Below, piece after piece: positions 1,822-37,634 of a stretch of DNA of 37,634 nt. Both the position numbers and the translations under genes were made by a program. The DNA lies in the IMG/VR virus record IMGVR_UViG_3300027863_000091, positions 1 through 37,634 of that record; one strand, written 5' to 3'. The first letter of the stretch is position 1; each line of letters opens with the position of its first letter. Origin of the DNA: a virus. Taxonomy: Duplodnaviria; Caudoviricetes. Below the pieces are notes generated by a model. That model was not told where the DNA came from. It saw nothing but the letters and a program-made list of their open reading frames with translations, and did no database searches.

Positions 1822-2356
1822 TCGTCGCCCTCACCGCCACAGCCGCCGTAACCGCGTATATCCGAAAGTACAAGTTCATAGGACTATACCCTGACCCATC
1901 GACCGGAGGGCCTCTGGTGCCTCCTCCCATCGCGATCCGCTACATGCAGGACCACGACCTCCGCGCTGTGACTGAGATCGACAACCTCGCATCTGATGGC
2001 CCGTGGCCGCTCAGGCTCTACTAGGCCGAGCGGCGCAAGCAGAACACGATCGGACTGGTCGCTGAGATCAAGGGCTGCATCGTCGGTTTCGCGCTTTACT
2101 CGTTCGAGCCGCGACACATCGACCTGACGAAGCTCTGTGTCAGCATCTACGCCCAGCGCCGCGGCGTCGGCAGGGTGTGGGCGTCGTGCTGGACGAGCGC
2201 AACCTCGGCGCCCAGCTCTTTCTGCGGGCCCGCGGCTTCCGCGCTGTTGGCCTGATGCCGGGGTTCTACGAGGACCACGACGGGATCGCGTTTACCTGCG
2301 AGGTGCCGCAGCCGTCGGGGATGATCGCGACGGCGAGTACGAGGAGGACCCGGTGA
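1818..2356 (+). pseudogene. Disrupted RimI-like GNAT N-acetyltransferase
   Basis: Reads IRYMQDHDLRAVTEID..GPW, then in-frame TAG (2022-2024), then NTIGLVAEIKGCIVGFALY..QRRGVGR (acetyl-CoA motif), then a frameshift/deletion near 2175, then ERNLGAQLFLRARGFRAVGLMPGFYED. Confidence 0.75.
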
Positions 2357-2931
2357 TCCCCAAGAAGCCTTACAAAATGCGCCGCCGCCCCGCACCGCTG
2401 ACCACCGCACAGCAGGCCCTCGCATCGGAGGCGTGGGGATATGTCGCTGACCTCGCGGCGCGGGCCGAGCGCCGGTGCCCGGCGACCTGTGCATCGGCCG
2501 AGGTCGCGTGCCGGATCGTGCGCACGATCGGGACGTACGACCCGTCGAGGTCGTCGCTCAAGAGCTGGGCGTTCCGGCAGGCCCGTGGCGCGATCCTCGA
2601 CGCGCAGCGGTCGAGCTTCCCAGCAGGCGCACGGCGGCACACCAAGGCGCCGCCAACTCAGCGCCTCGATATCTGCGGCGAGGACGACCACCCCGTCGCA
2701 CCAGACGACCGGGAGGCCGTTGACGAAGAGGACGCGATACGACACCTGCTGCGGGGTCTGTTGCCCCGCGAGCGCGAGATCGTGCGGGCCACGGTGATCG
2801 ATGGCGAGCCGCTGTCGGTGGTGGCCGATCGCCTGGGCTGCACGGACTCGCAGGTGTGCCGGTTGCGCGCCGGCGCGCTCGAGCGGCTGGGGTATGCCGC
2901 ATCGAACTTTAACCACATGAGGACCCAATGA
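2353..2931 (+). CDS. Sigma-70 family RNA polymerase sigma factor (FliA/ECF-like)
   Basis: GAGGAGG RBS and GTG start; region-2-like YDPSRSSLKSWAFRQARGAILDAQR and region-4 LLPREREIV...LSVVADRLGCTDSQVCRLRAGALERL. Confidence 0.8.
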   Translation: MIPKKPYKMRRRPAPLTTAQQALASEAWGYVADLAARAERRCPATCASAEVACRIVRTIGTYDPSRSSLKSWAFRQARGAILDAQRSSFPAGARRHTKAPPTQRLDICGEDDHPVAPDDREAVDEEDAIRHLLRGLLPREREIVRATVIDGEPLSVVADRLGCTDSQVCRLRAGALERLGYAASNFNHMRTQ

Positions 2932-3788
2932 GTGCGACTGCAGAGTTCTCGAAGAAGCCGTGGGATGACCCGACGGAACGGGCCGAGGTTTATACTTTCA
3001 CTCCAGAGGAAGCGCGGTGGCTGCTCAGGGAGCGGAACCCAGCCAATCGCCCCTGCAATCCCGGCCAGGTCAAGATGCTCGCCTCCGAGCTGGAAGGGGG
3101 GTACTGGCGGCGCAACGGTGAGACGATCATCTTTGACAGGGAGGGCCGCCTCATGAACGGTCAGCACCGCCTCACCGCCTGCGTTAGTTCTGGCGTAATG
3201 CTGGAGAGCTGGTGCGTCTTCGGCGTCGAGCCCGATGTCTTCGACACGCTCGACCGCACCAGGCGGCGCAGTACATCCGACGACCTCGCAATCCGGGGGG
3301 AGCGGCATTACACGACCCTCGCGGCAACCCTCGTCCTGATCGACCTGGAAGAGCGCGGCAAGTTGGACCAGATGTGGAGCGGCTCGAATCAGCACGTCGC
3401 GGCAGAGCTGCTGGCTCGTCACCCGCGCGTGCGCGGGGCTGTCGCCTACGTCTGCGCCCGAGCGTCCCTTAGGCGGCTGATGCCGGGGCGCGTGGCGTCG
3501 TTTTGCTTATACCGCTTCTCCGAGATCGACCACCACATGGGCTACGAGTTCTTCGAGCGTCTTGCGACAGGGGAGATGCTTGAAGAGGGCAACCCGATCC
3601 TTTTGTTGCGGAATCGGCTGCTCGAAAACCACGAGCACGGCACCATCTCCAGGATGCAGACGACCTACATCCTCGCGATCACCGTCAAGGCCTGGAACGC
3701 CTGGCGGGAGGGCCGGAAGCTGAAGTTCCTCCGATACAGGGGCGACCAGTCCGACGCGAAGCCGGAGAGCTTCCCGGTCCCCCATTGA
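2928..3788 (+). CDS. ParB/Srx-like N-terminal domain protein
   Basis: NR...GYWRRNGETIIFDREGRLMNGQHRLTA, a DGQHR-type motif of phage ParB-like proteins. Confidence 0.7.
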   Translation: MSATAEFSKKPWDDPTERAEVYTFTPEEARWLLRERNPANRPCNPGQVKMLASELEGGYWRRNGETIIFDREGRLMNGQHRLTACVSSGVMLESWCVFGVEPDVFDTLDRTRRRSTSDDLAIRGERHYTTLAATLVLIDLEERGKLDQMWSGSNQHVAAELLARHPRVRGAVAYVCARASLRRLMPGRVASFCLYRFSEIDHHMGYEFFERLATGEMLEEGNPILLLRNRLLENHEHGTISRMQTTYILAITVKAWNAWREGRKLKFLRYRGDQSDAKPESFPVPH

Positions 3789-3955
3789 CCCACGACGGAC
3801 CCCGCATGCCGGTGCGGGTTGCCCCTCGGATGGGGCGGTTATTTCTGGTCGGTGAATCCGAGGTGCTCAGCGATGATCCAGCGAGCCAGGGCGGCCGACG
3901 AGGACGCCAGCGACGACGAGTGAGCCACGACAAACCCCTAATCACAAGAGAACAT

Positions 3956-4438
3956 ATGAGCCATTTCCCGAACATGTTCAAGTCGCCCGCGAAGGGCTTC
4001 GAGACGTTCCTGGTACATGTGAGCGAATGCAGCCCTGAGACGGTCGTCTACAGGCTGGACGAGAGCGGCAAACCGCTCTCACTCGCCTGCGGGCCAGTAA
4101 AGGAGGTCATCGGCGAAGCGCTCAAAGCGGTGAACCCGCTCTTGCGCGTCGTGGATTATGGGCCAAATCGCCCGTTCAAGCCAGGCATGCCGTACTACTG
4201 GGACTTCTGTCAACTCAGGGAGAACAGGTGGAGAGCTCTCGTGCGAGTCCTCAACGGTCGCGGCATCCTGGCTGGCCGGTATCGCGAGCGACTTTCGGTC
4301 CTCGGTGGCCACGGCTTTGTCACCGAAATTGTATGCGGAGTCCGGGGATACCGGCTCACGCAGGCCGGCATCGAGGCCGACGCAGCGGCCGACGCAGCGG
4401 CCGACGCAGCGGTGGCGGCCGCAAAGCAGACGCCCTGA
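3956..4438 (+). CDS. Hypothetical protein, possible C-terminal winged helix
   Basis: ATG 3956 after an A-rich leader is preferred over 3785; GYRLTQAG wing-like motif; 12-nt tandem repeat x3 near 4376-4411. Confidence 0.55.
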   Translation: MSHFPNMFKSPAKGFETFLVHVSECSPETVVYRLDESGKPLSLACGPVKEVIGEALKAVNPLLRVVDYGPNRPFKPGMPYYWDFCQLRENRWRALVRVLNGRGILAGRYRERLSVLGGHGFVTEIVCGVRGYRLTQAGIEADAAADAAADAAVAAAKQTP

Positions 4439-4452
4439 CCGGACCGTGACGG

Positions 4453-4489
4453 GCTTCAATGGGGCCGCTCCGGTGAAGGAGCGGAAGAC
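4453..4489 (-). CRISPR. Solitary CRISPR repeat unit (type I-G/I-U-like), no array
   Basis: Minus strand reads GTCTTCCGCTCCTTCACCGGAGCGGCCCCATTGAAGC: 37 nt, 7-bp stem CCGCTCC/GGAGCGG, 3' ATTGAAGC handle; intergenic; no second copy found. Confidence 0.75.
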
Positions 4490-4525
4490 AACGCGGTAAC
4501 GACCGTGAGACTTGGGACCAACCCG

Positions 4526-5305
4526 ATGAAGTGGCTGAAGATGTGGACCGAAGCTCGCAACGACGGGAAGCTACGGTGCCTCAGCGATCGCCAGCATCGA
4601 GTGTGGTTCCGACTGTTGTGTTTCGCGGCCGAACAGGACCCGCCGGGGACGGTCCGCGCATCCTGGAAGATCCTCGCGGCCGAGTGCGCGGACGGCCAAA
4701 CCGAGACCGTCCAGGACGCTGTAACGGAGATGGAGTCGTTACAACTCGTTTCACTCGTTACATGCAACGACAAAGAGGTCGAGATCGTGTTTCCCTCCTT
4801 CGCCCGGAGGCAGGTGAAGTACCCTTCGGAGGACCCAAAGCGGGTCAACGCCCGCGTCCGAAAGCACCGTGGGGAAAGGAGGTTGCGTCAATCCGGTGCC
4901 GATGAAACGACATGTAACGAGTTGAAACGAGCGGAAACGGCTCAGAAGAAGAGTATAAATACCCCCCTTAATCCCCCCACGGGGGGCCGTTCGATCCGGT
5001 CCTTCGTCCCCCCGGATTGGGTACCCCGCGACGCTTGGGACGCCTGGGTCGAGCACCGCTCCAAGGGCCGCGCGAAGCCGACCCTCCGAGCGCTCGAACT
5101 CGCGGTGGGGAGGCTGGCGACCCTCCGCGACGAGGGCAGCGATCCCGGTGCGGTGCTGACGCAGTCGGTCGTCAACGGCTGGTCCGGGCTGTTCGCGGTC
5201 AAGGATGTCGGCGGCCGACCTCCAGCGCCTGCCCTCAAGCCTCCCGAAAAAATCGAATACTACGACCACGCGAAAGAACTTGAACGCATGAGGAACAGCC
5301 AATGA
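4526..5305 (+). CDS. Phage replication initiator / replisome organizer
   Basis: WLKMWTEARNDGKLRCLS...VWFRLLCFA N-terminus; PDWVP..AWDAWVEHR...QSVVNGWSGLF C-terminus; directly upstream of dnaB. Confidence 0.75.
   Translation: MKWLKMWTEARNDGKLRCLSDRQHRVWFRLLCFAAEQDPPGTVRASWKILAAECADGQTETVQDAVTEMESLQLVSLVTCNDKEVEIVFPSFARRQVKYPSEDPKRVNARVRKHRGERRLRQSGADETTCNELKRAETAQKKSINTPLNPPTGGRSIRSFVPPDWVPRDAWDAWVEHRSKGRAKPTLRALELAVGRLATLRDEGSDPGAVLTQSVVNGWSGLFAVKDVGGRPPAPALKPPEKIEYYDHAKELERMRNSQ
4736..4960. other. Putative replication origin (iterons) inside the initiator gene
   Basis: TGWAACGA at 4903, 4913 and 4923 (10-nt period) plus a variant at 4933; inverted TCGTTWCA at 4736, 4746 and 4755; AT-rich tract near 4944-4960. 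Confidence 0.6.
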
Positions 5306-6678
5306 ACGCCAATCGCCACGCGATCACCGACGGCGCCTCGAGCCTGCCCGAGCGCCTGCCGCCCCAGAACCTCGAGGCCGAGCGGGCGATGCTCGGCTGC
5401 TGCCTGCTTGACCCACGCAAGCTCGACGAAGCGGTGGAAGTGGTGCAGGCGGCCGACCTGTACCTCGACCAGCACCGCACAGTCTGGGATGCGATGGTCG
5501 CGATCCGGGAGCGGGGCGGCCGGCTCGACGCGATCACGCTTGCCGACGAGTTGATACGTCTCGGTCAGTTCGACCAAATCGGCGGCGACGAGACCCTGAC
5601 TGAGCTGGTGGACTCGGTTCGCCACGCCGCGAATGCCGCGTACTACGCCGGGATCGTCCGCGAGAAGTCGGTCGCGCGGCAGGTCCTGGAAGCCGGCGAG
5701 GAGATGCTGCGGGATGTCTACAGCTACCAGCACACCGCCAGCGAGCTGGTCTGCCGGGCCGAGGAGCGGATCTTCGCCGTGGGCGAGGCCGACGCCGGTC
5801 AGGCGTGGCCGATGGACGTGCTGACTGACGAGACGATGGCTCGCCTCGAGCTGCGGCGCGAGGGCGGCTCCCCGGGGCTCGCCAGCGGCTTCGGCGACCT
5901 CGACGGGATGACGGGGGGCTTCCAGGCCGGGACCGTCACGGTGCTGGCAGCGAGGCCGAGCCAGGGCAAGACGGCGCTGGCCCTGGCGATCGCCCGGCAC
6001 GTCGGATCGTCCGAGCCGGTGCTGTTCGTCTCGCTCGAGATGTCCCGTCACGAGATCGGTGACCGGCTGCTGTCGATGGTCTCGGGTGTGCCCGGTGCGA
6101 TGGTCCGCGAGGCCCGGATGCTCTCTGATCGCAGCCTCGGCCGGCTGCACGACGCGGCCGCCGAGCTGACCCGGCTCCAGGTGAAGCTCGACGACTCGCC
6201 GAATCGGACGGTCAGCCAGATCGCGGCCCTCGCCCGTCGCACTAAGCGACGCAGCGGCCTGGGGCTGGTCGTGGTCGATTACCTCGGTCTGATCGATGGG
6301 GTGCGGCGGAAGGGTGAGAGCCGGCAAGAGGAAGTGGCCCGGATTTCGCGCGGCCTCAAGGTGGCGGCCAAGCTGACCGGTGTGCCGTGGCTGGTGCTCG
6401 CCCAACTCAACCGCCAGAGCGAGCACCGCGAACGCAGGCGCCCCGAGCTGTCCGACCTCCGCGAGTCCGGCCAGATCGAAGCCGATGCCGACCTGGTGCT
6501 AATGCTCCATCGGCCCGAGTTCTACGACGCGAACGACCAGCCGGGCATCGCGGAGTTGTTGGTGCGCAAGAACCGCAACGGGGCGACCGGCGTCGTGCGG
6601 CTGGTGTTCCGCAAGGAGTGCACATCGTTTGATGGGACGGCGGCGTACGTCGAGCCAGCCGACTCGCCGGCGTTCTGA
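5302..6678 (+). CDS. dnaB: Replicative DNA helicase
   Basis: PPQNLEAERAMLG N-terminus; Walker A AARPSQGKT; VVDYLGL; AQLNR; SDLRESGQIEADAD. Confidence 0.95.
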   Translation: MNANRHAITDGASSLPERLPPQNLEAERAMLGCCLLDPRKLDEAVEVVQAADLYLDQHRTVWDAMVAIRERGGRLDAITLADELIRLGQFDQIGGDETLTELVDSVRHAANAAYYAGIVREKSVARQVLEAGEEMLRDVYSYQHTASELVCRAEERIFAVGEADAGQAWPMDVLTDETMARLELRREGGSPGLASGFGDLDGMTGGFQAGTVTVLAARPSQGKTALALAIARHVGSSEPVLFVSLEMSRHEIGDRLLSMVSGVPGAMVREARMLSDRSLGRLHDAAAELTRLQVKLDDSPNRTVSQIAALARRTKRRSGLGLVVVDYLGLIDGVRRKGESRQEEVARISRGLKVAAKLTGVPWLVLAQLNRQSEHRERRRPELSDLRESGQIEADADLVLMLHRPEFYDANDQPGIAELLVRKNRNGATGVVRLVFRKECTSFDGTAAYVEPADSPAF

Positions 6679-7515: not shown

Positions 7516-7934
7516 GCACATCACGCAGCGCGTGGCAGCGGGCGGAATCAGGTCTCGCGGCGCTCTTCGGGGCACGCCGGCGCGTGCTGAGCGGATCAGC
7601 CAACCGCGACGACATCGACTCCGATGACGGGACGCATCCACGTTTGTACCTAGAATCAAAGCTCCGTGCGGCGCACGCTGTCTGGTCGCTGTACCGCGCG
7701 ACCAAGGCGCGGGCGGCGAAGTCGCGGCGCGAGTACCAGGGCGGACACAAGGTGCCCGTGCTTGGCCTGCGCGAGAAGGGTAAGCACGGCGTGCTGCTGG
7801 TGGTGCACGAGGATGATTTCGCCGAGGTCGCGGCCGAATTCCTCGCGGCACGGACGGACGACGAGGTGCGCGAGTTCGAACAAGCCGTGCGAGTGCGGCG
7901 GCTGGGGCTCTTGGGCGATCAACAGGAGGTGTGA
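7512..7934 (+). CDS. Holliday junction resolvase-like PD-(D/E)xK nuclease
   Basis: WQRAE..LA..FG.RRRVLSGS...D......YLESK pattern, located after the replication genes. Confidence 0.65.
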   Translation: MSTSRSAWQRAESGLAALFGARRRVLSGSANRDDIDSDDGTHPRLYLESKLRAAHAVWSLYRATKARAAKSRREYQGGHKVPVLGLREKGKHGVLLVVHEDDFAEVAAEFLAARTDDEVREFEQAVRVRRLGLLGDQQEV

Positions 7935-7935
7935 C

Positions 7936-8133
7936 ATGCTGGTGCTGGCGAGGCACGCGGACGAGGGGATCATCATCACCGTGGGTGATGTGCGGATCAG
8001 GGTCGTGCTGTGCGAGATCCGCGGCAACAAGGTACGCATCGGCATCGAGGCACCTGACGACGTGGTGATCCACCGCGACGAGGTGCAGCAGGCGATTGAC
8101 CGTGGCGAGCCGCAGCGGAGGAGGGCAACGTGA
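7936..8133 (+). CDS. csrA: Carbon storage regulator-like RNA-binding protein
   Basis: MLVLARHADEGIII...IRGNKVRIGIEAPDDVVIHRDEV is the CsrA signature; AGGAGG RBS. Confidence 0.92.
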   Translation: MLVLARHADEGIIITVGDVRIRVVLCEIRGNKVRIGIEAPDDVVIHRDEVQQAIDRGEPQRRRAT

Positions 8134-9907: not shown

Positions 9908-10981
9908 ATGTCAAGCCCCACGGTGATCGACTGGCAAGCGGTGATCCAGGCCCTGGCGCAGCTCCTCCTGCCGCTCGGGATCGCGGAGTTGGAGCGGCTC
10001 GAGGCGGTCGTGACGAATCCGCTCGAGCTGGAGGCGATCAAGGTCGCGCTCCAGATCCTCCAGTCGCTCGAGACGCCGCCTCCGATCGCAGGGCGCCGTT
10101 ACATGCGCGGTGCGCGGCCCACGCCTCGCCACCAGCTCGCCGCGGCGCTGCCGCACCGGCCCACGGCTCGCGAGATCGCAGCCGCGCCTCCGACGTTTTT
10201 CACGTTGCCGGCAACCATGTACATGCTCGGCAACTCGACATATGGTGATTGTGTTACGGCTGAGCAGTGCGCCGCTATCATGGCCTATTCGATCTGGGGC
10301 CAGGGCCACGTGCAGCCCAAGGTCACGATCACCGACAGCACCGCGATTGGCTGGGCGCAGGCCCACGGCGTGCTCAACGGTGCCGGGCTCCAGGAGGTCA
10401 TGACCTGGAATCAGACCGACCCCATCGTGGGCACCAACGGCACCGGCTACACCGACGGGACCCACCTGGCCGTCGATTACACCAACGACGGTGCCGTCCG
10501 TGCCGCGATCGTCCAAGGCCCCGTCAAGATCGGCGTGGCGGCGAGCCAGCTCCAAGCCGCGCTCGACGCGTCCAACGGCCTCAGTGGGTGGGTGCTCAGC
10601 GGCGCTGGCACTGATCAGAATATCGACCACTGTGTAAGCTTGTGGTCGTACGGCACGTTTGCCGATCTGGTCGCTCTATTCACCGCCGCTGGCTTCGCGT
10701 GCTCCGTGCCGAGCGGTCAGGATCCGCACGAGCCTTCGTACGGCCTCTACACGTGGCAGACCGAGGGAATTATCAGCCGCTCATCGATGATCGCGATCAC
10801 CGGCGAGGGGTGGCTCCGTACGCCCACTTCTCCGCAGATCACGCCCACTCCGACTCCGACTCCGGCTCCGACTCCCACACCTGTGCAGGCCGGCTACACC
10901 GGCACCCTCACCGTGGACACCGGGCTATTCGGGCGCGTTGCCCTAGCCTATCAGGACGGCCGGCTGATCTCGGTCCAGTAA
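9908..10981 (+). CDS. Papain-like cysteine peptidase, putative endolysin
   Basis: MLGNSTYGDCV (catalytic Cys), DHCVSLWSYG (His) and YTW strand; Pro-Thr linker; adjacent to a holin-like gene. Confidence 0.6.
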   Translation: MSSPTVIDWQAVIQALAQLLLPLGIAELERLEAVVTNPLELEAIKVALQILQSLETPPPIAGRRYMRGARPTPRHQLAAALPHRPTAREIAAAPPTFFTLPATMYMLGNSTYGDCVTAEQCAAIMAYSIWGQGHVQPKVTITDSTAIGWAQAHGVLNGAGLQEVMTWNQTDPIVGTNGTGYTDGTHLAVDYTNDGAVRAAIVQGPVKIGVAASQLQAALDASNGLSGWVLSGAGTDQNIDHCVSLWSYGTFADLVALFTAAGFACSVPSGQDPHEPSYGLYTWQTEGIISRSSMIAITGEGWLRTPTSPQITPTPTPTPAPTPTPVQAGYTGTLTVDTGLFGRVALAYQDGRLISVQ

Positions 10982-11409: not shown

Positions 11410-11738
11410 GCGAGGAGATCCGACCGCCAGGATCCCGCCCCCGGTATGAGTTGCACCAGCAGCACGCGGCCGAGGTTCGCCCCGGCCCGACCGCGCCGCA
11501 TCCCGACCACGGCGGCACGCTCGCCGGGGTCGAGACCCTCCTCGACGCGATCCGGCAGACACGCGAGCTGTTCCGGGTCGCTCGCTCCCCTCGCACCGAC
11601 GCGCTGTGGCCGCACCTGCGACCGTTGCTGTGCGAGGCCGAGGCGTGGCTCCAACGACAGCTGCGCGCCGATCCGCAGGACGGTGCGAGCAGCGTGCTCC
11701 TGCAAGAGGTACGGCGATACCTGGGCCGACACGCGTGA
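11406..11738 (+). CDS. Hypothetical protein, 110 aa
   Basis: GTGA coupling on both sides; AGGAG RBS. Confidence 0.55.
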   Translation: MSEEIRPPGSRPRYELHQQHAAEVRPGPTAPHPDHGGTLAGVETLLDAIRQTRELFRVARSPRTDALWPHLRPLLCEAEAWLQRQLRADPQDGASSVLLQEVRRYLGRHA

Positions 11739-11892
11739 GACTCCTCACCCTCCTCGTCTTCCTCGTCTTCGCGCCCTGGTGGTCGTACGGGCCATCGCTG
11801 GGATCGAGTGGGACCTGATCTGTGGGGTGATGTTGATGGGAGTTGGTGTTGGGTACTGGATCGGATCGGGACCAAGGGCGAAAGGACCCTGA
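11735..11892 (+). pseudogene. Small two-helix membrane protein apparently split by a 1-nt frameshift
   Basis: MRLLTLLVFLVF in one frame continues as ALVVVRAIAGIEWDLICGVMLMGVGVGYWIG in another near 11770. Confidence 0.4.
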
Positions 11893-12337: not shown

Positions 12338-13775
12338 CGACCCGGTGGGCTTCAATCAACGTGTGCTCAAGCGGCTGCCGTTCGACCCCAACCCGACCAC
12401 GCGGCAGTATCAGCGCGAGGTGTGCCAGTCGGTGCTCGACTATCGCGTAACGGTGGTGTTCTCGGGCAATTCGACGGGTAAAGACTATCTGTTGGGATGC
12501 CTGATCCCCTGGTGGGGGTTCACCCGGCCCAACAGTCTCACGATGGTCACCGGCGTATCCCAGACCCTCCTTGGTAGCGTCACCTTCAAGGAGGTTCGGC
12601 GCGCTATCTCCGGGTCGCCCGTGCTGCGTCAGCTCGGCGTGAAGATGAGCCAGGGCGTAAAGGCCAGCCCGCAGCTCGTGGAGTTTGGGCCCGGCTGGCA
12701 TGTCCTCGGCTTCTCCACGACCAATGTGGAGCGCGCGTCGGGTCAGCACTCACCCGAGTTGTTTGCTGTCATCAACGAAGGCTCAGGCGTTGATGACCAC
12801 ATCTATGACGCGGTCGATAGCTGGGTCTATAAGCGGCTGCTGGTCTTCGGCAACCCCATCCGTGCGGATGGCCGTTTCATTGAGCTGATCCGGCAGGCTG
12901 AAGCCGATCGCCGCGACGGCGTGCCGAAGCACCTCGCGGTTAACGCGATCCAGATCCCCTCAACCGACTCGCCCCACGCCCACCTCGACCATTCGCCGTT
13001 TGGCCTGGCCGATAGGACGTGGCTCGAGTCGATGTACCGTCAGTACGGGCCTGACAGCCTGTGGGTACGCAGTCACATCAAGGCTGAGGTACCTGTTGTC
13101 TCCTCCGATGCCCTGCTGCCCGAGGCATGGCTCGATTGGGCGGCTTGCGACGAAAACGGCCAGCGCGTCCGGCCGCTTGCCCATCCTGTCACGGCCACGC
13201 GACGGATCTCGTGCGACCTGGGCGAGGGCGTGGGACGTGACTCGAGCTGTGTGCTGGTACGCGACGAGTGGGGCATCCTGGATGTGGTTTTTGGCTCGGC
13301 GCTCGGTCTGCCCGAGGCGGCCGATCTGATCTACCAAAAGGCACTCGCCTGGAACGTACCACCCAACCGAATCACCTATGATCGCGCCGGCATCGGTCGG
13401 GACTTCCCCTTGCACCTGCGGCGCAACTTCGGCGACGTGGCACGCCAGATCCAGGGCTACGCCGGTGCGGGGTCGCCCCAGAGCAAGGACTTCGCCAACT
13501 TGCGTACCGAGGCGGCGTGGCGGCTGCGCCAGCGTCTCGAGCCGGGTGCCGATCTGCACGGCTCGTCCGTGGATCGATTCGCGCTCAGGCTCAAGGTGCC
13601 GTTCGGCATCCCGCGCGGCCCGTATTGGCCACGGCTGCGGGAGGAGCTGAAGACGCTGTCCTACTCGATGGCCGGTCGCAAGATCAAGCTGCTGCCCAAG
13701 GCCGATCACGCGATCCTGCTTGGTCATTCACCGGACATCGGTGATGCGCTGATGCAGTCTTTTGCGTTCCCATAA
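12255..13775 (+). CDS. terL: Terminase large subunit
   Basis: YRDDPVGF; Walker A SGNSTGKD; Walker B FAVINEGSG; coupling motif FGNP; nuclease ISCDLGEGVGRDSS and SPDIGDAL. Confidence 0.9.
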   Translation: MNPSSPSPTPSTKLLAQKIRLLQQKYRDDPVGFNQRVLKRLPFDPNPTTRQYQREVCQSVLDYRVTVVFSGNSTGKDYLLGCLIPWWGFTRPNSLTMVTGVSQTLLGSVTFKEVRRAISGSPVLRQLGVKMSQGVKASPQLVEFGPGWHVLGFSTTNVERASGQHSPELFAVINEGSGVDDHIYDAVDSWVYKRLLVFGNPIRADGRFIELIRQAEADRRDGVPKHLAVNAIQIPSTDSPHAHLDHSPFGLADRTWLESMYRQYGPDSLWVRSHIKAEVPVVSSDALLPEAWLDWAACDENGQRVRPLAHPVTATRRISCDLGEGVGRDSSCVLVRDEWGILDVVFGSALGLPEAADLIYQKALAWNVPPNRITYDRAGIGRDFPLHLRRNFGDVARQIQGYAGAGSPQSKDFANLRTEAAWRLRQRLEPGADLHGSSVDRFALRLKVPFGIPRGPYWPRLREELKTLSYSMAGRKIKLLPKADHAILLGHSPDIGDALMQSFAFP

Positions 13776-14024: not shown

Positions 14025-15542
14025 ATGATCGACGTCAACAAGGTCATCACCGAGGTGGAGGGTGGCCTCCAGACCGAGGCACGCCACCGCATGGACCGTG
14101 CGCTCGAGGCGCTGGCGTTCTACGACTTCCGCGGTCATTCTTATATGCAGGAATTTAAGAATGATGCCGAGACGCCGCTCGAGTACATCAAGCGTCCATA
14201 CCGCGAGAGCGGTATCACGCGGGAGGCGGTGCGCATCCTGACACAGCACCTGTACGCACCGGGCCCACGACGGATGTGGGACGACGAGGGCGTCCAGGCG
14301 TTCTTGGACTCGGTGTACTTGGCGAACCACATTGACATCAAGATGCTGCGGGCTGACCAGCTCTCAACGCTCTCCGATGTTTGCGCGATCCAGGTCGACG
14401 CGGACCAGGGCGACCCGAGCAACCCGATCAAGCTGAGACTGTGGGGCGCAGAGGAATTCCACGTCTGGGAGGACCCGGACGACCGTTGCACCCCGGCCGC
14501 GGTCGTGACCAAGGACGTTTACGACATGACCACGCGGTATCGCCTGTGGACTCAGGAGTACGTTTATACGTTCATCACTCGCAAGGCCACGGCGACGGCT
14601 GGCGGGAGGGTGGCCCATCGTGTGAGCAAGGACGAGAACACTTATGGGTGTCTACCCTTCGCGTTCGTTCACAACGAGTACCCAGCACGCGCTTTCTGGG
14701 AGACGGGGATCGGCGAGCTGATCGTGCGGGCCGAGGTACGGGTCAACGATCGGTTGAGTCGGCTCGACCAGGCGATCAGCAAGCATCTCAACCCGTTCCC
14801 GTGGGCCCGCGGCGTGCCCGAGGGCTTCGAGGTGATCCTCGGTAATGCGGGGAATATGTTTATCACTTTGCCGGGTCGTGGTCGGCTGCCATCGCCGAGT
14901 GGCGACTATCAGGCACCCGATCAACCCGAGGTGGGATACCTTCAAGCGGTGATCGATATCGCTGGCGCATGGGAGGATATCAGGAGCTTCGTCACCCAGA
15001 TTTTCGAGGCGGCCGGCGTCCCACAGGCGGCTTATCGAATGGAGCAGACGGGCGTCGCATCAGGGATCTCGCTGATGGTGGAACAGGCTCCCCTCCTCAC
15101 GCGAGCCAGGGAGCGACGACCGTACTTTGCGTCGTATGAGCATGAGCTGGGGCGAGTGATTTTGAGATGTGCTGGCACCCACTACGGTCGTCCCGGTCTA
15201 GTGGCGGCTGCGGATCGGGCCAAGCTCACGCTGGACTGGCCAGAGCCGTCGATCCCGATCCCGACCGACGACTGGTACACTCTCCAGATGTCGCGTGTGG
15301 CGACGGGTACGACGAGCCTGATCCGGGTGGTGATGCAGGAGCGCGGCTGTGCTCGTGACCAGGCCGTCGAGATCCTCCGACAGATCGAGGACGACCGTCA
15401 GGAGCTGGCCAGGATCATTCCCGGCTTGCAGCTACCCAGTTACGCAGGTCAGCAGCTCGCGCAGGGGGGCGACCAGGGGGACGCCTCTGTACCGGCTGCG
15501 GATAACGTGCAGGAGACTCCGAGTGATAGTACCGATCAGTGA
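14025..15542 (+). CDS. Portal protein (SPP1 gp6-like)
   Basis: 505 aa after terL; NTYGCLPFAFVHN, ASGISL and acidic tail typical of portals. Confidence 0.85.
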   Translation: MIDVNKVITEVEGGLQTEARHRMDRALEALAFYDFRGHSYMQEFKNDAETPLEYIKRPYRESGITREAVRILTQHLYAPGPRRMWDDEGVQAFLDSVYLANHIDIKMLRADQLSTLSDVCAIQVDADQGDPSNPIKLRLWGAEEFHVWEDPDDRCTPAAVVTKDVYDMTTRYRLWTQEYVYTFITRKATATAGGRVAHRVSKDENTYGCLPFAFVHNEYPARAFWETGIGELIVRAEVRVNDRLSRLDQAISKHLNPFPWARGVPEGFEVILGNAGNMFITLPGRGRLPSPSGDYQAPDQPEVGYLQAVIDIAGAWEDIRSFVTQIFEAAGVPQAAYRMEQTGVASGISLMVEQAPLLTRARERRPYFASYEHELGRVILRCAGTHYGRPGLVAAADRAKLTLDWPEPSIPIPTDDWYTLQMSRVATGTTSLIRVVMQERGCARDQAVEILRQIEDDRQELARIIPGLQLPSYAGQQLAQGGDQGDASVPAADNVQETPSDSTDQ

Positions 15543-27411: not shown

Positions 27412-29436
27412 GTGGCCAGCGTCCTGACCATCGGCGGGAGCACGATCAGCCGTGCGTCCGCTCGCATTGTACTCAATACCATGACCCTGAGCCTAGACGG
27501 CCAGCCTGACGAGCTGGCGTTCACCGAGCTGAACGCGACCCTCCCAGGCTCGTACGCACCTGAGGAGACCGTCACTCTGACCGATGGGACAACGACCCTT
27601 TTCTCGGGCTGGATTTTCTCGCGCGAGTCATCGGGGTTCGGGCAGGTCTCGGGCCGTGTGGGGTATCGCGCGCTGGGACTGTCCTACGGCGCGTCGCTGA
27701 TCGCGATCACGGCCAGCGACGGCACCGGGACCATGGCGTTCAACCTACCGATCACCGATCCCTACTATAGCGCCACTGAGTCCGGTCTGAGCGTGGGGAC
27801 GATCATCTCGCAGGTGATCGCACAGCACTCGACCCAGCTCACAGCCATGGGGATTTCGACCGACAGCACCACGACGACTCAGCTCTCCGCGTTGACGATC
27901 GTCCCACCCGAAGCGATCTATATCGCGGGGAACTCGCTCTGGGGGCAGCTCCTGCAATTCTTGCAGCAGTGGTACGGTAACCGGTACGCGCTGCGTGTCG
28001 AGCCGTCAGGCCTGGTGCGGTGCTGGGACACCCTGACGCTGACCACCGAGACCATCACGCTCGACACCGACCCCGCGATCCTCTCCTCGATCAGCGAGGA
28101 CACAAGCGAGTGTTATACCCAGGTCGTCCTGCGCGGCCGCGACGACGTTGAGCCGGTGTACCTGTCGCTCCACGACGGGACCCTCGTGGGGGAGGCCGCT
28201 TCGGGCGGCGGCTGGACGGCCGCCGAACAGGGCGAGTGGACGATCGCGGACTACCTCTACCCACAGGGAGGGTACGATCAGGGCAAGATCACCGCGCTCA
28301 CCTCCACCGTGGTCACAGTGCAGAGCGATTATGCCGCAGCGAGCTGGCCGGTGAATTACTGGAGCGGTATCCAGGGTCAGATCAACTGCATCAACCCGGT
28401 GGCGACTGGTATTGATATGACAGAGTACCGTCATATCACCGCGGACTCGGCATTGACGGCCGGTGGCACGGCGACGATCACAGTGGACCGAGCATTCGCC
28501 GCGACTGGGTACACGCGCTATCAGATCACCGGGATTCCGTCGGGCCTATCGCAGGTGTGGCGCAAGTATATGATCCCGAACACATATATCGCTGAGCATC
28601 TCGTCGAACAGTTCAATTTCGCCGTGCCCTTCAGCACGAGCCAATCGGCCGTGGCGATGACCACCGGCCCAGCGGCTGTCCTGTGCTACAACGCTGGCGG
28701 CGGTGGAGCGGGGATCGACGTGCAGATACCGGTGAATTTCGAGGTCGTGCCGTACGACGGCACAAATCCGGGCTACCTGCTCTTTTTCATTCCTACCTGC
28801 GTATCAACAAATCAGAATACACAGGCTACACTGGAGGCTGGCGGCACAGGCGTTGTCGGTCCGACCGATATCATCGCGCTGGTGCCGTATAGCCGGGGGA
28901 CGCTGACCGTCACCAGCCCATCGGCAGGAGGGTATTCGGGTACCGCGTACAGCCGGTTCAGCGTGGAGCGCACGCTCTACCGAGACTATCCGACCTGGAT
29001 CGACGCGGGGAACAGCAGCAGCATGCAAGAGCTGGCTGACCTCATCCTGTCGACGGTGTCGAACGCAGTCCAGGAAGGCTCCGTCACCTACTTCGATCGG
29101 TACGCCCCCGCGCTGCCGGACGGGTCGTGGCCGATCGCGCTCAACCTCGCCAAAGCGACCGGGACGACCGGGTACGAGTCGATGGGCGCACCGGTGCGGC
29201 GCGTCGAGCTGACCTGGCCGCAGGATGGTGCGGCCATCTGGACGACCACGCTCCACTTCACGACCAGGCGACAGATGTTTTCAGGTGAAAAAGTCTATGT
29301 GCACCCGATGTATCTCGACAGCGGCGCACCCCTCTCGGGCGTGCAGCAGACCATGGTACCCCCTGGCTATCAGCCCCCCGGCGGCGCAGGGTACGTGACC
29401 AGCGATAGCGGATCAGCACCTGGAGGGGACGCGTGA
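27412..29436 (+). CDS. Tail tip / hub protein
   Basis: 674 aa, Thr/Ser-rich beta protein after the tape measure; hub-like YTQVVLRG and C-terminal VRRVELTW. Confidence 0.65.
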   Translation: MASVLTIGGSTISRASARIVLNTMTLSLDGQPDELAFTELNATLPGSYAPEETVTLTDGTTTLFSGWIFSRESSGFGQVSGRVGYRALGLSYGASLIAITASDGTGTMAFNLPITDPYYSATESGLSVGTIISQVIAQHSTQLTAMGISTDSTTTTQLSALTIVPPEAIYIAGNSLWGQLLQFLQQWYGNRYALRVEPSGLVRCWDTLTLTTETITLDTDPAILSSISEDTSECYTQVVLRGRDDVEPVYLSLHDGTLVGEAASGGGWTAAEQGEWTIADYLYPQGGYDQGKITALTSTVVTVQSDYAAASWPVNYWSGIQGQINCINPVATGIDMTEYRHITADSALTAGGTATITVDRAFAATGYTRYQITGIPSGLSQVWRKYMIPNTYIAEHLVEQFNFAVPFSTSQSAVAMTTGPAAVLCYNAGGGGAGIDVQIPVNFEVVPYDGTNPGYLLFFIPTCVSTNQNTQATLEAGGTGVVGPTDIIALVPYSRGTLTVTSPSAGGYSGTAYSRFSVERTLYRDYPTWIDAGNSSSMQELADLILSTVSNAVQEGSVTYFDRYAPALPDGSWPIALNLAKATGTTGYESMGAPVRRVELTWPQDGAAIWTTTLHFTTRRQMFSGEKVYVHPMYLDSGAPLSGVQQTMVPPGYQPPGGAGYVTSDSGSAPGGDA

Positions 29437-30419: not shown

Positions 30420-30667
30420 CCTGGGACGACGCACTCGAGCAACTGTCGGCGCAGGGCCACGCCCACGCGGACAAGTTCCGCGAGCTGTGCACGCGGGACG
30501 CTGATCCCACGCAACGGGACGCCTATCGGCGGGCGGTCGTGCGACTCGCGACCACCGGCCTAGACGCCCCAACGCCACTCCCGGTCGACTATGGCACGGA
30601 CGGCCCCGGGCCCTGTCGGGGCTGCGGCCACCACGCCCCCACGTCACTCCCGGAGAGATCACCATGA
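30416..30667 (+). CDS. Hypothetical protein, 83 aa
   Basis: ATGA coupling on both sides; C-terminal PCRGC. Confidence 0.55.
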   Translation: MTWDDALEQLSAQGHAHADKFRELCTRDADPTQRDAYRRAVVRLATTGLDAPTPLPVDYGTDGPGPCRGCGHHAPTSLPERSP

Positions 30668-31227
30668 TTCGCCCCTGGGAACCCCTCACGATCGAGCAAC
30701 AGCGTATCGTCGAGCATTACGCTGGATACGCCCACGCGCTAGCGTACGCGCACCGGGTGGATCTCCAGGACGCCGACCGACTCGACCTGCGGCAGGATCT
30801 CTGCCTGCGGCTTATACGCATGGTCGAGACTTACACACATGACGAGCGGTTGCATCGGTCGATCATCCACGGGCTGCGAATGCACCAGCGGCGCTGGATC
30901 ATCGACCGTCGCCGGCAGCGACGCTTGCGCGACGTCACGGTCTGGTGGTCCGAGGACGACGACGGATACCCGCCCCCGCCCGCGCCGCCGGGCGACGCGG
31001 ACGACCGCGAGGAGTTCCGCATGCTCATCCTCGACCGGCTGGGACACCTCACACCCCGGCAGCGGCAAGCGCTCGAGCTCTACCTCGAATGCGGCTGCTG
31101 GTCCGAGGTGGGCCGCAAGATGTGCATCCGCGGGCGGCAGGAGGTGCAGAAGCTCAAGTCGCGGGGCCTGTCTCGCCTCCGCGCCCTTGCGTGCACTACG
31201 CCAGCCGCTGCCTCCCTAGCCACGTAA
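30664..31227 (+). CDS. Second sigma-70 family sigma factor-like protein
   Basis: LTIEQQRIVEHY...DLRQD...LIRMVETY region 2; LTPRQRQALEL...WSEVGRKM...VQKLKSRGLSRLR region 4. Confidence 0.7.
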   Translation: MIRPWEPLTIEQQRIVEHYAGYAHALAYAHRVDLQDADRLDLRQDLCLRLIRMVETYTHDERLHRSIIHGLRMHQRRWIIDRRRQRRLRDVTVWWSEDDDGYPPPPAPPGDADDREEFRMLILDRLGHLTPRQRQALELYLECGCWSEVGRKMCIRGRQEVQKLKSRGLSRLRALACTTPAAASLAT

Positions 31228-32981: not shown

Positions 32982-33551
32982 TCACCGATCGCGTCCCGGA
33001 CCGCCCGGGACCATCTGCCTGTCTGATTCAATCCGCTCCCGGCCCGTGGACCGGGAGAGCCCCGCCGGCGACCGGAGCTGGCCGGCGTACTGGCGGCTGA
33101 CGCCGTACTCCCGCGCCAGCGCCGCGAGCGATTCGCCGGCCCGGGCGCGCCGGGCCAGCTCGGCGCGGCGCCCGTCGTCGAGCTTGAGCGGCCTGGCGCC
33201 TTTGCCGAGGCGGACCGAGGCCAGCTCGCGCCAGAGGCGCTGTGTGCCGGGGTTGAAGCGCGGGACCTTGAGCGCGTGCCGCCAGCGGCGGACGGTCCAG
33301 CGCGACACGCCCCAGTGGTACACGATCGCCTCAACGCTCTCGGTCTCGACGGCGCGTCTGAGTTCGGCCGTCATCGCCGGCAGGGGAGCCGGCGCGGTCG
33401 GCGCCGACCGCACCAGCGGCCAGGGGACCGGCGCGTCGGAGATCGCGACGACCGGCGTGTCGCCGTGCAGCAGGTCGTGGATCGGCTTGCCGACCCGACA
33501 GCGGGGCGACCGGTATGGCGCACCGATCAGCGCGGGGACCGTGTCCGACAT
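32982..33551 (-). CDS. Double-HTH DNA-binding protein
   Basis: TGATG coupling; ELRRAVETESVEAIVYHWGVSRWTVRRWRHAL and GESLAALAREYGVSRQY HTH motifs. Confidence 0.7.
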   Translation of the reverse strand: MSDTVPALIGAPYRSPRCRVGKPIHDLLHGDTPVVAISDAPVPWPLVRSAPTAPAPLPAMTAELRRAVETESVEAIVYHWGVSRWTVRRWRHALKVPRFNPGTQRLWRELASVRLGKGARPLKLDDGRRAELARRARAGESLAALAREYGVSRQYAGQLRSPAGLSRSTGRERIESDRQMVPGGPGRDR

Positions 33552-37135: not shown

Positions 37136-37414
37136 ATGTCAAAGACGAAGACTGATACGAGGCCCACGCAAATCGTCGTGGCCGACCGGGGGTTCGCGTA
37201 TGTCGGCCTGGTCGATCTGACGGCCGACTGGGTCATCGTGAGCGAGGCGCGGAATATCCGCTACTGGGGCACCACACGAGGGCTCGGCCAGCTCGCGCTC
37301 GAGGGGCCGACATCCTCGACGCAACTGGACGACGCGGGCACCGTGCGCATCCCCGTCCGTGCGGTCATCTCCCTGATTGATACGGAGGGCCGGCTGTGGA
37401 CTCGCAAGAGCTGA
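37136..37414 (+). CDS. DUF6948-like small beta-barrel phage protein
   Basis: IVVADRGFAYVG...ARNIRYWGTTRGLGQLALEGP motif; followed by the Gly-Tyr repeat gene. Confidence 0.7.
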   Translation: MSKTKTDTRPTQIVVADRGFAYVGLVDLTADWVIVSEARNIRYWGTTRGLGQLALEGPTSSTQLDDAGTVRIPVRAVISLIDTEGRLWTRKS

Positions 37415-37634
37415 TCCTGACGCTTGACGGCTCCGGCGACGCCTGCGGCTCCGGCGACGGCTATGGCTGCGGCTACGGCTACGGCTACGGCTACATCTCC
37501 GGCTACGGCGACGGCTACGGCTACGGCGACGGCCACGGCTCCGGTTACGGCGGCGGCTACAGCTCCGGCTACGGCTACGGCGACGGCGATGGCTACGGCT
37601 GCGGCTACGGCTACGGCGACGGCGATGGCTACGG
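37396..37634 (+). CDS. Gly-Tyr/Gly-Asp repeat protein, 5' part (ends at nt 70)
   Basis: GGAGG RBS at 37384 and GTG start; MDSQELILTLDGSGDACGSGDGYGCGYGYGY... Confidence 0.75.
   Translation, partial: MDSQELILTLDGSGDACGSGDGYGCGYGYGYGYISGYGDGYGYGDGHGSGYGGGYSSGYGYGDGDGYGCGYGYGDGDGY

Follow-up and report, generated by a model that had tools for sequence, protein, structure and literature searches.

RNA anti-CRISPRs (Racrs) have been validated for the CRISPR subtypes I-C, I-E, I-F and V-A (PMC10651486, section 12), and the solitary repeat units described so far are often located directly behind a promoter. A second group of related elements, the virus-borne mini-arrays, carry host-identical repeats, target related viruses and contain self-avoiding mutations (Medvedeva et al., 2019, PMC6858448; PMC11656645), and leaderless phage mini-arrays have been mentioned as well (PMC6858448). 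Cracrs and viral crlRNAs are likewise phage repeat-derived RNAs aimed at host Cas (10.1101/2024.10.29.618823). For subtype I-G, Csb2 of Thioalkalivibrio was reported to bind the repeat hairpin at ~43 nM, to cut 4 nt past the 7-bp stem and to stay on the hairpin (10.1101/2022.08.08.503147), and no test of an I-G Racr was found in our literature search. Further literature drawn on here comprises 10.1101/2023.03.03.530964, PMC10274657 and PMC6547450.

The locus considered here is a single 37-nt repeat in a 37.6-kb phage record, estimated to be 91% complete and analysed over its whole length of 37,634 nt (the window). The repeat is already known as a Racr candidate: supplementary file 3 of Camara-Wilpert et al. 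(2023, PMC10651486) lists it at row 626 as a solitary repeat unit of subtype I-G (same contig as our L013, positions 4453-4486, 91% identity to a database repeat) and again, from a second assembly, at row 1698, among 25 I-G rows; both listings are solitary. The proposal of a candidate Racr made in the preliminary description is therefore reasonable, but not new. Beyond this publication, the present analysis adds the exact host repeat, host-lineage spacers, the orientation of the unit, a likely insertion scar, a second mimic and a repeat-spacer-repeat contig from sequencing run X2. Like the validated RacrIF1 and RacrIC1, the unit consists of one host-like repeat whose processing hairpin is intact, lies between genes and is not accompanied by cas genes; its distance from the gene in front of it is 14 nt, compared with 11 nt for RacrIC1. 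However, RacrIF1 and RacrIC1 are transcribed in the processable sense, either from a promoter or together with an acr gene, whereas the phage unit is antisense, and no acr gene was recognised beside it. The unit and its neighbours are as follows.

3956 to 4438, plus strand: 160-aa protein with 40 relatives, left neighbour, without Pfam, PHROG or PADLOC family
4453 to 4489, minus strand: solitary type I-G CRISPR repeat with Csb2-type geometry (exact scan, fold, Rfam)
4505 to 5305 (start 4505 or 4526), plus strand: O-like replication initiator, right neighbour (phrog_678, E 1e-17)
5302 to 6678, plus strand: DnaB, 3' of the replication initiator

The 37-mer occurs once in the window, and no chance match at up to 3 mismatches was obtained in 100 shuffles. 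Its predicted fold opens with 5 nt, followed by a 7-bp stem closed by a 6-nt loop, 4 further nt and, at the end, the handle ATTGAAGC of 8 nt (MFE -13.4 kcal/mol, z -2.6). The Rfam family CRISPR-DR16 covers it over its full length with 26.1 bits (E 0.0013), short of the gathering score of 35. Scan and fold thus bear out the intact minus-strand unit with 7-bp stem and 8-nt handle that had been described from the letters alone. Stem, 4-nt spacing and handle have the layout of a Csb2 site, and the minus strand can be regarded as the processable strand because this geometry equals the Csb2 substrate of Thioalkalivibrio I-G. The unit is full-length and intergenic, with no like repeat within 100 bp; PADLOC recognised no defence or cas family in 57 ORFs of the window, and PHROGs no cas family among 61. 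Two further candidates were rejected, i.e., a second exact ATTGAAGC at 12349, which is a chance match in coding sequence, and a degenerate second I-G repeat near 4365-4400, which is the Ala/Asp-rich coding tail of the 160-aa ORF. The earlier statement that the unit stands alone consequently holds for cas genes and I-G repeats, but a type I-C-like mimic is present at 33025-33061 (see below).

Early genes (LexA-like, sigma-like, replication initiator, DnaB) form a rightward operon in the window, which further contains head and tail genes and, at ~31.2-36.4 kb, a leftward block. For the 160-aa protein the start at 3956 is backed by its 40 relatives, most of which align from their first residues; the family measures 150-170 aa, and several relatives are located on 30-42-kb contigs. 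It yielded weak winged-helix-like leads and Atlas matches all below 0.9, and a genomic-context search of the family returned no loci. The neighbours of the 37-mer matched no known defence or anti-defence family in PHROGs, PADLOC and Pfam, which include no dedicated Acr library. Both record ends (1-70 and 37411-37634) lie inside one Gly-Tyr/Gly-Asp tandem repeat, which makes it probable that the genome is circular and that the contig is interrupted within an ORF of low complexity; the proteins of the window are also encoded by a contig of 37,736 bp.

The exact 37-mer was found in one of 185,579 species genomes, the Planctomycetota MAG G001, in which 140 of the 153 repeats of an array are identical to it and 13 carry a single-base difference. 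Upstream of this array lie cas4g/1g, csb1, csb2, cas3g and a Cas3-extension gene, i.e., a complete operon of type I-G families that is frameshifted in the assembly (cas2 was not scored in this assignment), so that the phage 37-mer equals the repeat of an array that neighbours csb1/csb2/cas3g/cas8g/cas4-1. The I-G subtype proposed for the unit is accordingly right, being anchored to a real array and its cas operon; a near-exact match in real arrays had been expected to reveal host and subtype, and the exact match found gives the host lineage together with subtype I-G. Among 121 genomes of the family of G001, possibly the Isosphaeraceae, the repeat is present at up to 3 mismatches in one, and csb1 in 33. 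The exact repeat was absent from the viral contigs and from GenBank phages and plasmids, and in metagenome contigs it was found only in the window's own contig, L013. Close phage relatives were not found by replication protein, and an I-G-like repeat was absent from 9 distant loci sharing the 2928-3788 protein and from 4 prophage loci identified by replication protein.

The processable strand is antisense to both flanking genes, and no sigma-70-like promoter was detected in 3500-5400 by a consensus scan that is weak for planctomycetes and unsuited to other sigma factors. The caveat on orientation and promoter raised in the preliminary description thus holds. Two sigma-70 region 2/4-like proteins and a CsrA-like regulator are encoded in the window (2353-2931, 30664-31227 and 7934-8133), and the phage sigma-like proteins could direct transcription from promoters that a sigma-70 consensus scan overlooks. 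The same orientation makes it unlikely that the unit is a Cas-processed site controlling the replication genes, as had been suggested, because the operon mRNA would bear the reverse complement rather than a Csb2 substrate.

A degenerate repeat pattern retrieved 68 viral loci, 27 of which contain at least two repeats. Orientation was surveyed for the 42 single units (41 of the 68 loci plus the window) with a crude, home-made gene caller based on amino-acid frequencies; 16 units were dropped owing to a stem of less than 6 bp or as duplicates, and two loci (L047, L060) lie at contig ends. Among the remaining 26 solitary hairpin units, 11 are sense and 9 antisense to both flanks, 3 are sense and 1 is antisense with one flank only, and 2 are mixed; the strand of both flanks was confirmed with PHROGs for two antisense (L019, L081) and two sense loci (L056, L061). 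Antisense placement is therefore common for I-G-like units (9 of 26), a frequency that the standard Racr model leaves unexplained. In many unrelated viruses the captured piece is exactly one whole repeat. One further solitary I-G-like repeat (L014/L036, 1501-1537) follows DnaB in a replication operon, to which it is antisense, and overlaps the ends of two small ORFs.

Antisense placement raises the question of whether the early mRNA itself, carrying the complement of the repeat, might pair with host pre-crRNA, mask the Csb2 hairpin and block the maturation of new crRNAs. Such an anti-repeat RNA would make an extra promoter unnecessary and would account for the perfect identity, and the duplex is favoured by ~50 kcal/mol in context, a value that holds for any exact complement; the 9 units that are antisense on both sides, including the two confirmed ones, fit as well. 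However, sense placement is at least equally common, a single site per mRNA would face ~150 repeats per array, and the literature searched offered no precedent. A variant in which the complement serves as a type III 'self-tag' finds no Cmr2 or RAMP match in G001, a genome that is possibly incomplete. Altogether, this mechanism is considered very unlikely.

The repeat is enclosed by a pair of direct repeats, which likely mark an insertion or duplication boundary.

4442 to 4449, plus strand: 8-bp direct repeat GACCGTGA, left copy
4501 to 4508, plus strand: 8-bp direct repeat, right copy, including the possible GTG start (4505) of the replication initiator

The pair encloses 3 + 37 + 11 nt (51 nt), and a comparable flanking 8-mer pair occurs at 332 of 37,000 window positions. 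Deletion of the 51 nt and one 8-bp copy leaves a 7-nt gap ahead of the GTG start. In the prophage L102, the replication gene shares 43% identity over its N-terminal 130 aa with the initiator, aligning with the N-terminus of the latter, and no repeat is present upstream of it. The 51 nt together with the 8-bp duplication are thus likely an insertion scar, and the arrangement suggests that an array fragment was captured by short-homology recombination; a Rad52-like annealing protein at 512-1501 is a lead only. The leader end common to both I-G arrays of G001 is absent at the phage unit.

These boundaries would also be expected if the unit were a functionless, recently captured piece of a host array, left as a recombination scar in a tolerant intergenic gap. 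The 37/37 identity, the duplication enclosing 51 foreign nt, the repeat-free L102 prophage, the annealing-protein lead, the missing promoter and the mixed orientation of the 26 units are all in line with this view. Nevertheless, the left junction is unchanged in two sequencing runs, exactly one whole repeat was captured in many unrelated viruses, and the same genome carries a second mimic that has diverged while preserving its stem, so that mere capture appears rather improbable. This second mimic is located in the leftward block.

33025 to 33061, minus strand: type I-C-like repeat mimic, 29/36 nt identical to the I-C array repeat of G110, from the host family

The mimic was flagged weakly by Rfam (E 0.48), and a pattern derived from it finds arrays in the host family beside type I-C operons; a match in G029 was dismissed as chance, as it lies in a ribosomal-protein-like operon and the loose pattern can match by chance. 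Its identity of 29/36 was scored post hoc and compares with 22 for the next site of the window and with maxima of 25 both in 150 Markov simulations and in 82 other loci. The 9-bp stem is kept through one compensatory (C-G to T-A) and one wobble change (C-G to T-G). The mimic is sense to its leftward operon and is situated in the non-conserved tail of an HTH gene, whose stop region it replaces; it starts at the point where the two closest HTH homologs, with 75% and 64% identity, stop. Another imperfect hairpin lies 13 nt past the mimic, and for these 13 nt no promoter target was found. The mimic is not listed in supplementary file 3 of PMC10651486, and none of the 63 I-C spacers tested match the phage below 10 mismatches. 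That a genome of only 37.6 kb carries a second mimic with a preserved stem speaks for repeat mimicry being under selection.

Spacers directed against the phage were found in both I-G arrays of G001. In array 1, 5 of 152 spacers match the phage at 5, 7, 8, 9 and 9 mismatches, as compared with 0 of 760 shuffles below 10 mismatches and 0 of 152 reversed spacers below 11; in array 2, 1 of 100 spacers matches at 2 mismatches, the next best having 11. The two closest protospacers, one of which corresponds to a spacer from run X2, are as follows.

15253 to 15289, minus strand: protospacer, 35/37 nt to a spacer of the second I-G array of G001, 5' flank GAC
29390 to 29426, minus strand: protospacer, 36/37 nt to a run X2 spacer lying between two I-G repeat copies, 5' flank TCC

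A TTN flank has been reported for I-G, and 2 of the 6 G001 protospacers carry it, against a TT background of 2.5%. The closest protospacers lack TTN (TCC, GAC, CGC), which suggests that the phage may also escape by mutation. The exact repeat and the matching spacers make a planctomycete host of the G001 lineage likely, with G001 as a proxy and not a proven host. The cognate subtype expected of a Racr's host is, at the level of the lineage, evidenced by the G001 arrays and the X2 spacer.

Three sequencing runs cover the region (X1, X2 and X3, all DNA). X1 shows both junctions of the repeat and X2 the left one, and no Logan contig bridges the whole repeat; X2 has no cover at 4490-4601 and X3 only partial cover, and neither gap is taken as evidence. 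Run X2 contains a 104-nt repeat-spacer-repeat loop contig at a depth of 6.59, next to phage pieces at 3.0-6.0, of which the adjoining left piece is at 5.89, and the 37-nt spacer of the loop is the one matching the phage. In a depth model that assumes length-weighted k-mer depth, the value expected for a phage form with two repeats is 6.6, and the upper limit for a host array at depth 2-4 is ~19 to 5 repeats, contig depth not being readable as copy number according to the tool's own warning. No leader or trailer contig was seen beside the loop. The loop is either a host array or the mini-array of a sibling phage; whichever its origin, it confirms that the repeat and anti-phage spacers co-occur with the phage in X2. 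In X1, a 187-nt foreign flank at depth 10.1 is joined to the handle end of the repeat (window position 4453). Its last 30 nt contain TATAAC, loosely like the leader end of G001 but at the opposite repeat end, and the flank is either the end of a host array or a phage variant. Neither the X2 spacer nor the X1 loose end occurs in the viral contigs, and the latter is also absent from the 121 family genomes.

The loop brings into play a collapsed or expandable viral mini-array. Here, siblings of the phage would carry repeat-spacer-repeat at this position and use the host I-G Cascade against close relatives, the form in the window having lost or not yet gained its spacer. The phage-like depth of the loop agrees with this scenario, as do the at least two repeats in 27 of the 68 viral loci. 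The unit has the host-identical repeat of the described virus-borne mini-arrays, and the X2 spacer likewise targets the phage lineage with a mismatch and a non-consensus flank. In contrast to such mini-arrays, however, the window holds one repeat without spacer or leader, and the phage origin of the loop is only putative. Assembler graph simplification can shrink a low-depth host array to one loop, which could produce the same contig from a long host array. No X2 contig joins the loop to the right flank of the phage, both published listings are solitary, neither a leader-end motif upstream nor a promoter was found, and the same missing minus-strand promoter would be required. On balance, a mini-array at this site is unlikely.

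A use at the DNA level would be independent of orientation. The unit could serve as a decoy integration site for Cas4/1-Cas2, i.e., a spacer sink silenced by its orientation, or as an attachment site of the prophage for insertion into the host array; integration into arrays has been cited (PMC10651486, section 12), and it would be understandable why a spacer derived from the phage is seen between two repeats at phage-like depth. On the other hand, the unit lacks the leader end that is conserved in both G001 arrays, the I-G integration assays consulted used leader plus repeat, and the X2 spacer differs from the window by one mismatch and has a non-TTN flank there. Tyrosine integrase (PF00589) and resolvase (PF00239) genes, one of which an attP would call for, were absent from the 91%-complete record, with positive controls in 14/14 and 12/14 cases. 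Such a use has little probability.

The lineage of G001 also harbors repeat-derived elements of its own. Between the cas2 region and csb1 (L012, ~11650-11840; G001:C31), a CreR-like mini-array is located on the strand opposite the I-G operon; 11 nt plus 4 of its spacer match just downstream of csb1 promoter-like boxes, with a TTA flank, making it a candidate autoregulatory guide for type I-G by sequence. The main text of the crlRNA survey does not mention 'I-G' (10.1101/2024.10.29.618823). Another solitary repeat (L130, ~10862-10898, minus strand; G001:C11), a copy of the 37-nt I-G repeat with 4 mismatches behind a TTGACA box, lies near the second I-G locus of G001, whose array uses another repeat; it is possibly a regulatory guide.

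A Cracr-type circuit thus appears to exist in the host lineage, since G001 has a repeat-like guide to the csb1 promoter, and the phage unit might be a regulatory guide of this kind that silences a host promoter. However, it lacks the second pseudo-repeat, and the sequence after its handle differs from the csb1 guide of G001. No seed match of at least 9 PAM-proximal positions was found in the cas promoters of G001, the proxy host; the best TYN-flanked seeds (9-10 nt including wildcards) lie outside promoters there, and seeds occur in 4 of 12 csb1 loci. I-G is not among the subtypes named for Cracrs (section 7). The earlier idea of a single-repeat mini-guide found no support: what follows the handle is coding sequence from the 3' end of the adjacent ORF, and no PAM-flanked seed match to it was found in host cas promoters. 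An assembly chimera through the repeat would be consistent with the lack of a bridging Logan contig, but not readily with junctions seen on the left in X1 and X2 and on the right in X1, or with the same unit in a second assembly. Guide and chimera are, even taken together, the most remote of the explanations.

The reading we favor, tentatively and at a little short of an even chance, is that the exact copy of the host-lineage I-G repeat acts as an RNA decoy of the Racr type. In this model, a piece of a host array would have been captured by short-homology recombination, as indicated by the 51 nt and the 8-bp duplication, and a minus-strand transcript would start at a putative promoter within the 5' part of the replication gene. 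Host Csb2 would bind this RNA and cleave it, and Cas7, by analogy to RacrIF1 (PMC10651486), would load upstream of the hairpin, thereby withdrawing subunits from crRNA assembly. Csb2 and Cas7 would then be held in a non-functional complex, resulting in CRISPR inhibition, and with the I-C-like mimic a further CRISPR subtype of the host family would be countered in the same way. The decoy is favored because the unit is identical to the array repeat, has the geometry of a Csb2 substrate and stands alone between two genes, and because the host lineage carries anti-phage spacers; its transcription, Cas binding and inhibitory effect are predicted by analogy. Its main weakness is the processable strand being antisense to the operon with no sigma-70-like promoter found; moreover, the perfect identity, including loop and 5' end, fits a recent unselected capture as well, and the neighbours match no known defence or anti-defence family.

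The decoy and the mini-array might also be two states of one element. In this speculative and rather unlikely extension, a switchable CRISPR socket would exist within one phage population either as a lone repeat serving as decoy or as a sibling-targeting repeat-spacer-repeat, and would be filled without a leader; antisense placement would keep read-through from the early operon from making self-targeting crRNA.

By itself, the unit adds little, as it is a catalogued candidate. It nonetheless offers an unusually well-anchored I-G test case, in which the exact cognate repeat and the cas operon are known and the I-G Cascade can be reconstituted, and repeat and spacers link a phage that has not been cultured with a host lineage among the planctomycetes. 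Should the X2 loop belong to a phage, it would show how solitary repeats and mini-arrays interconvert. If true, the socket would be the first direct link of solitary repeats and viral mini-arrays at one locus and, together with the I-C-like mimic, would mean that a planctomycete phage counters two CRISPR subtypes by RNA alone.
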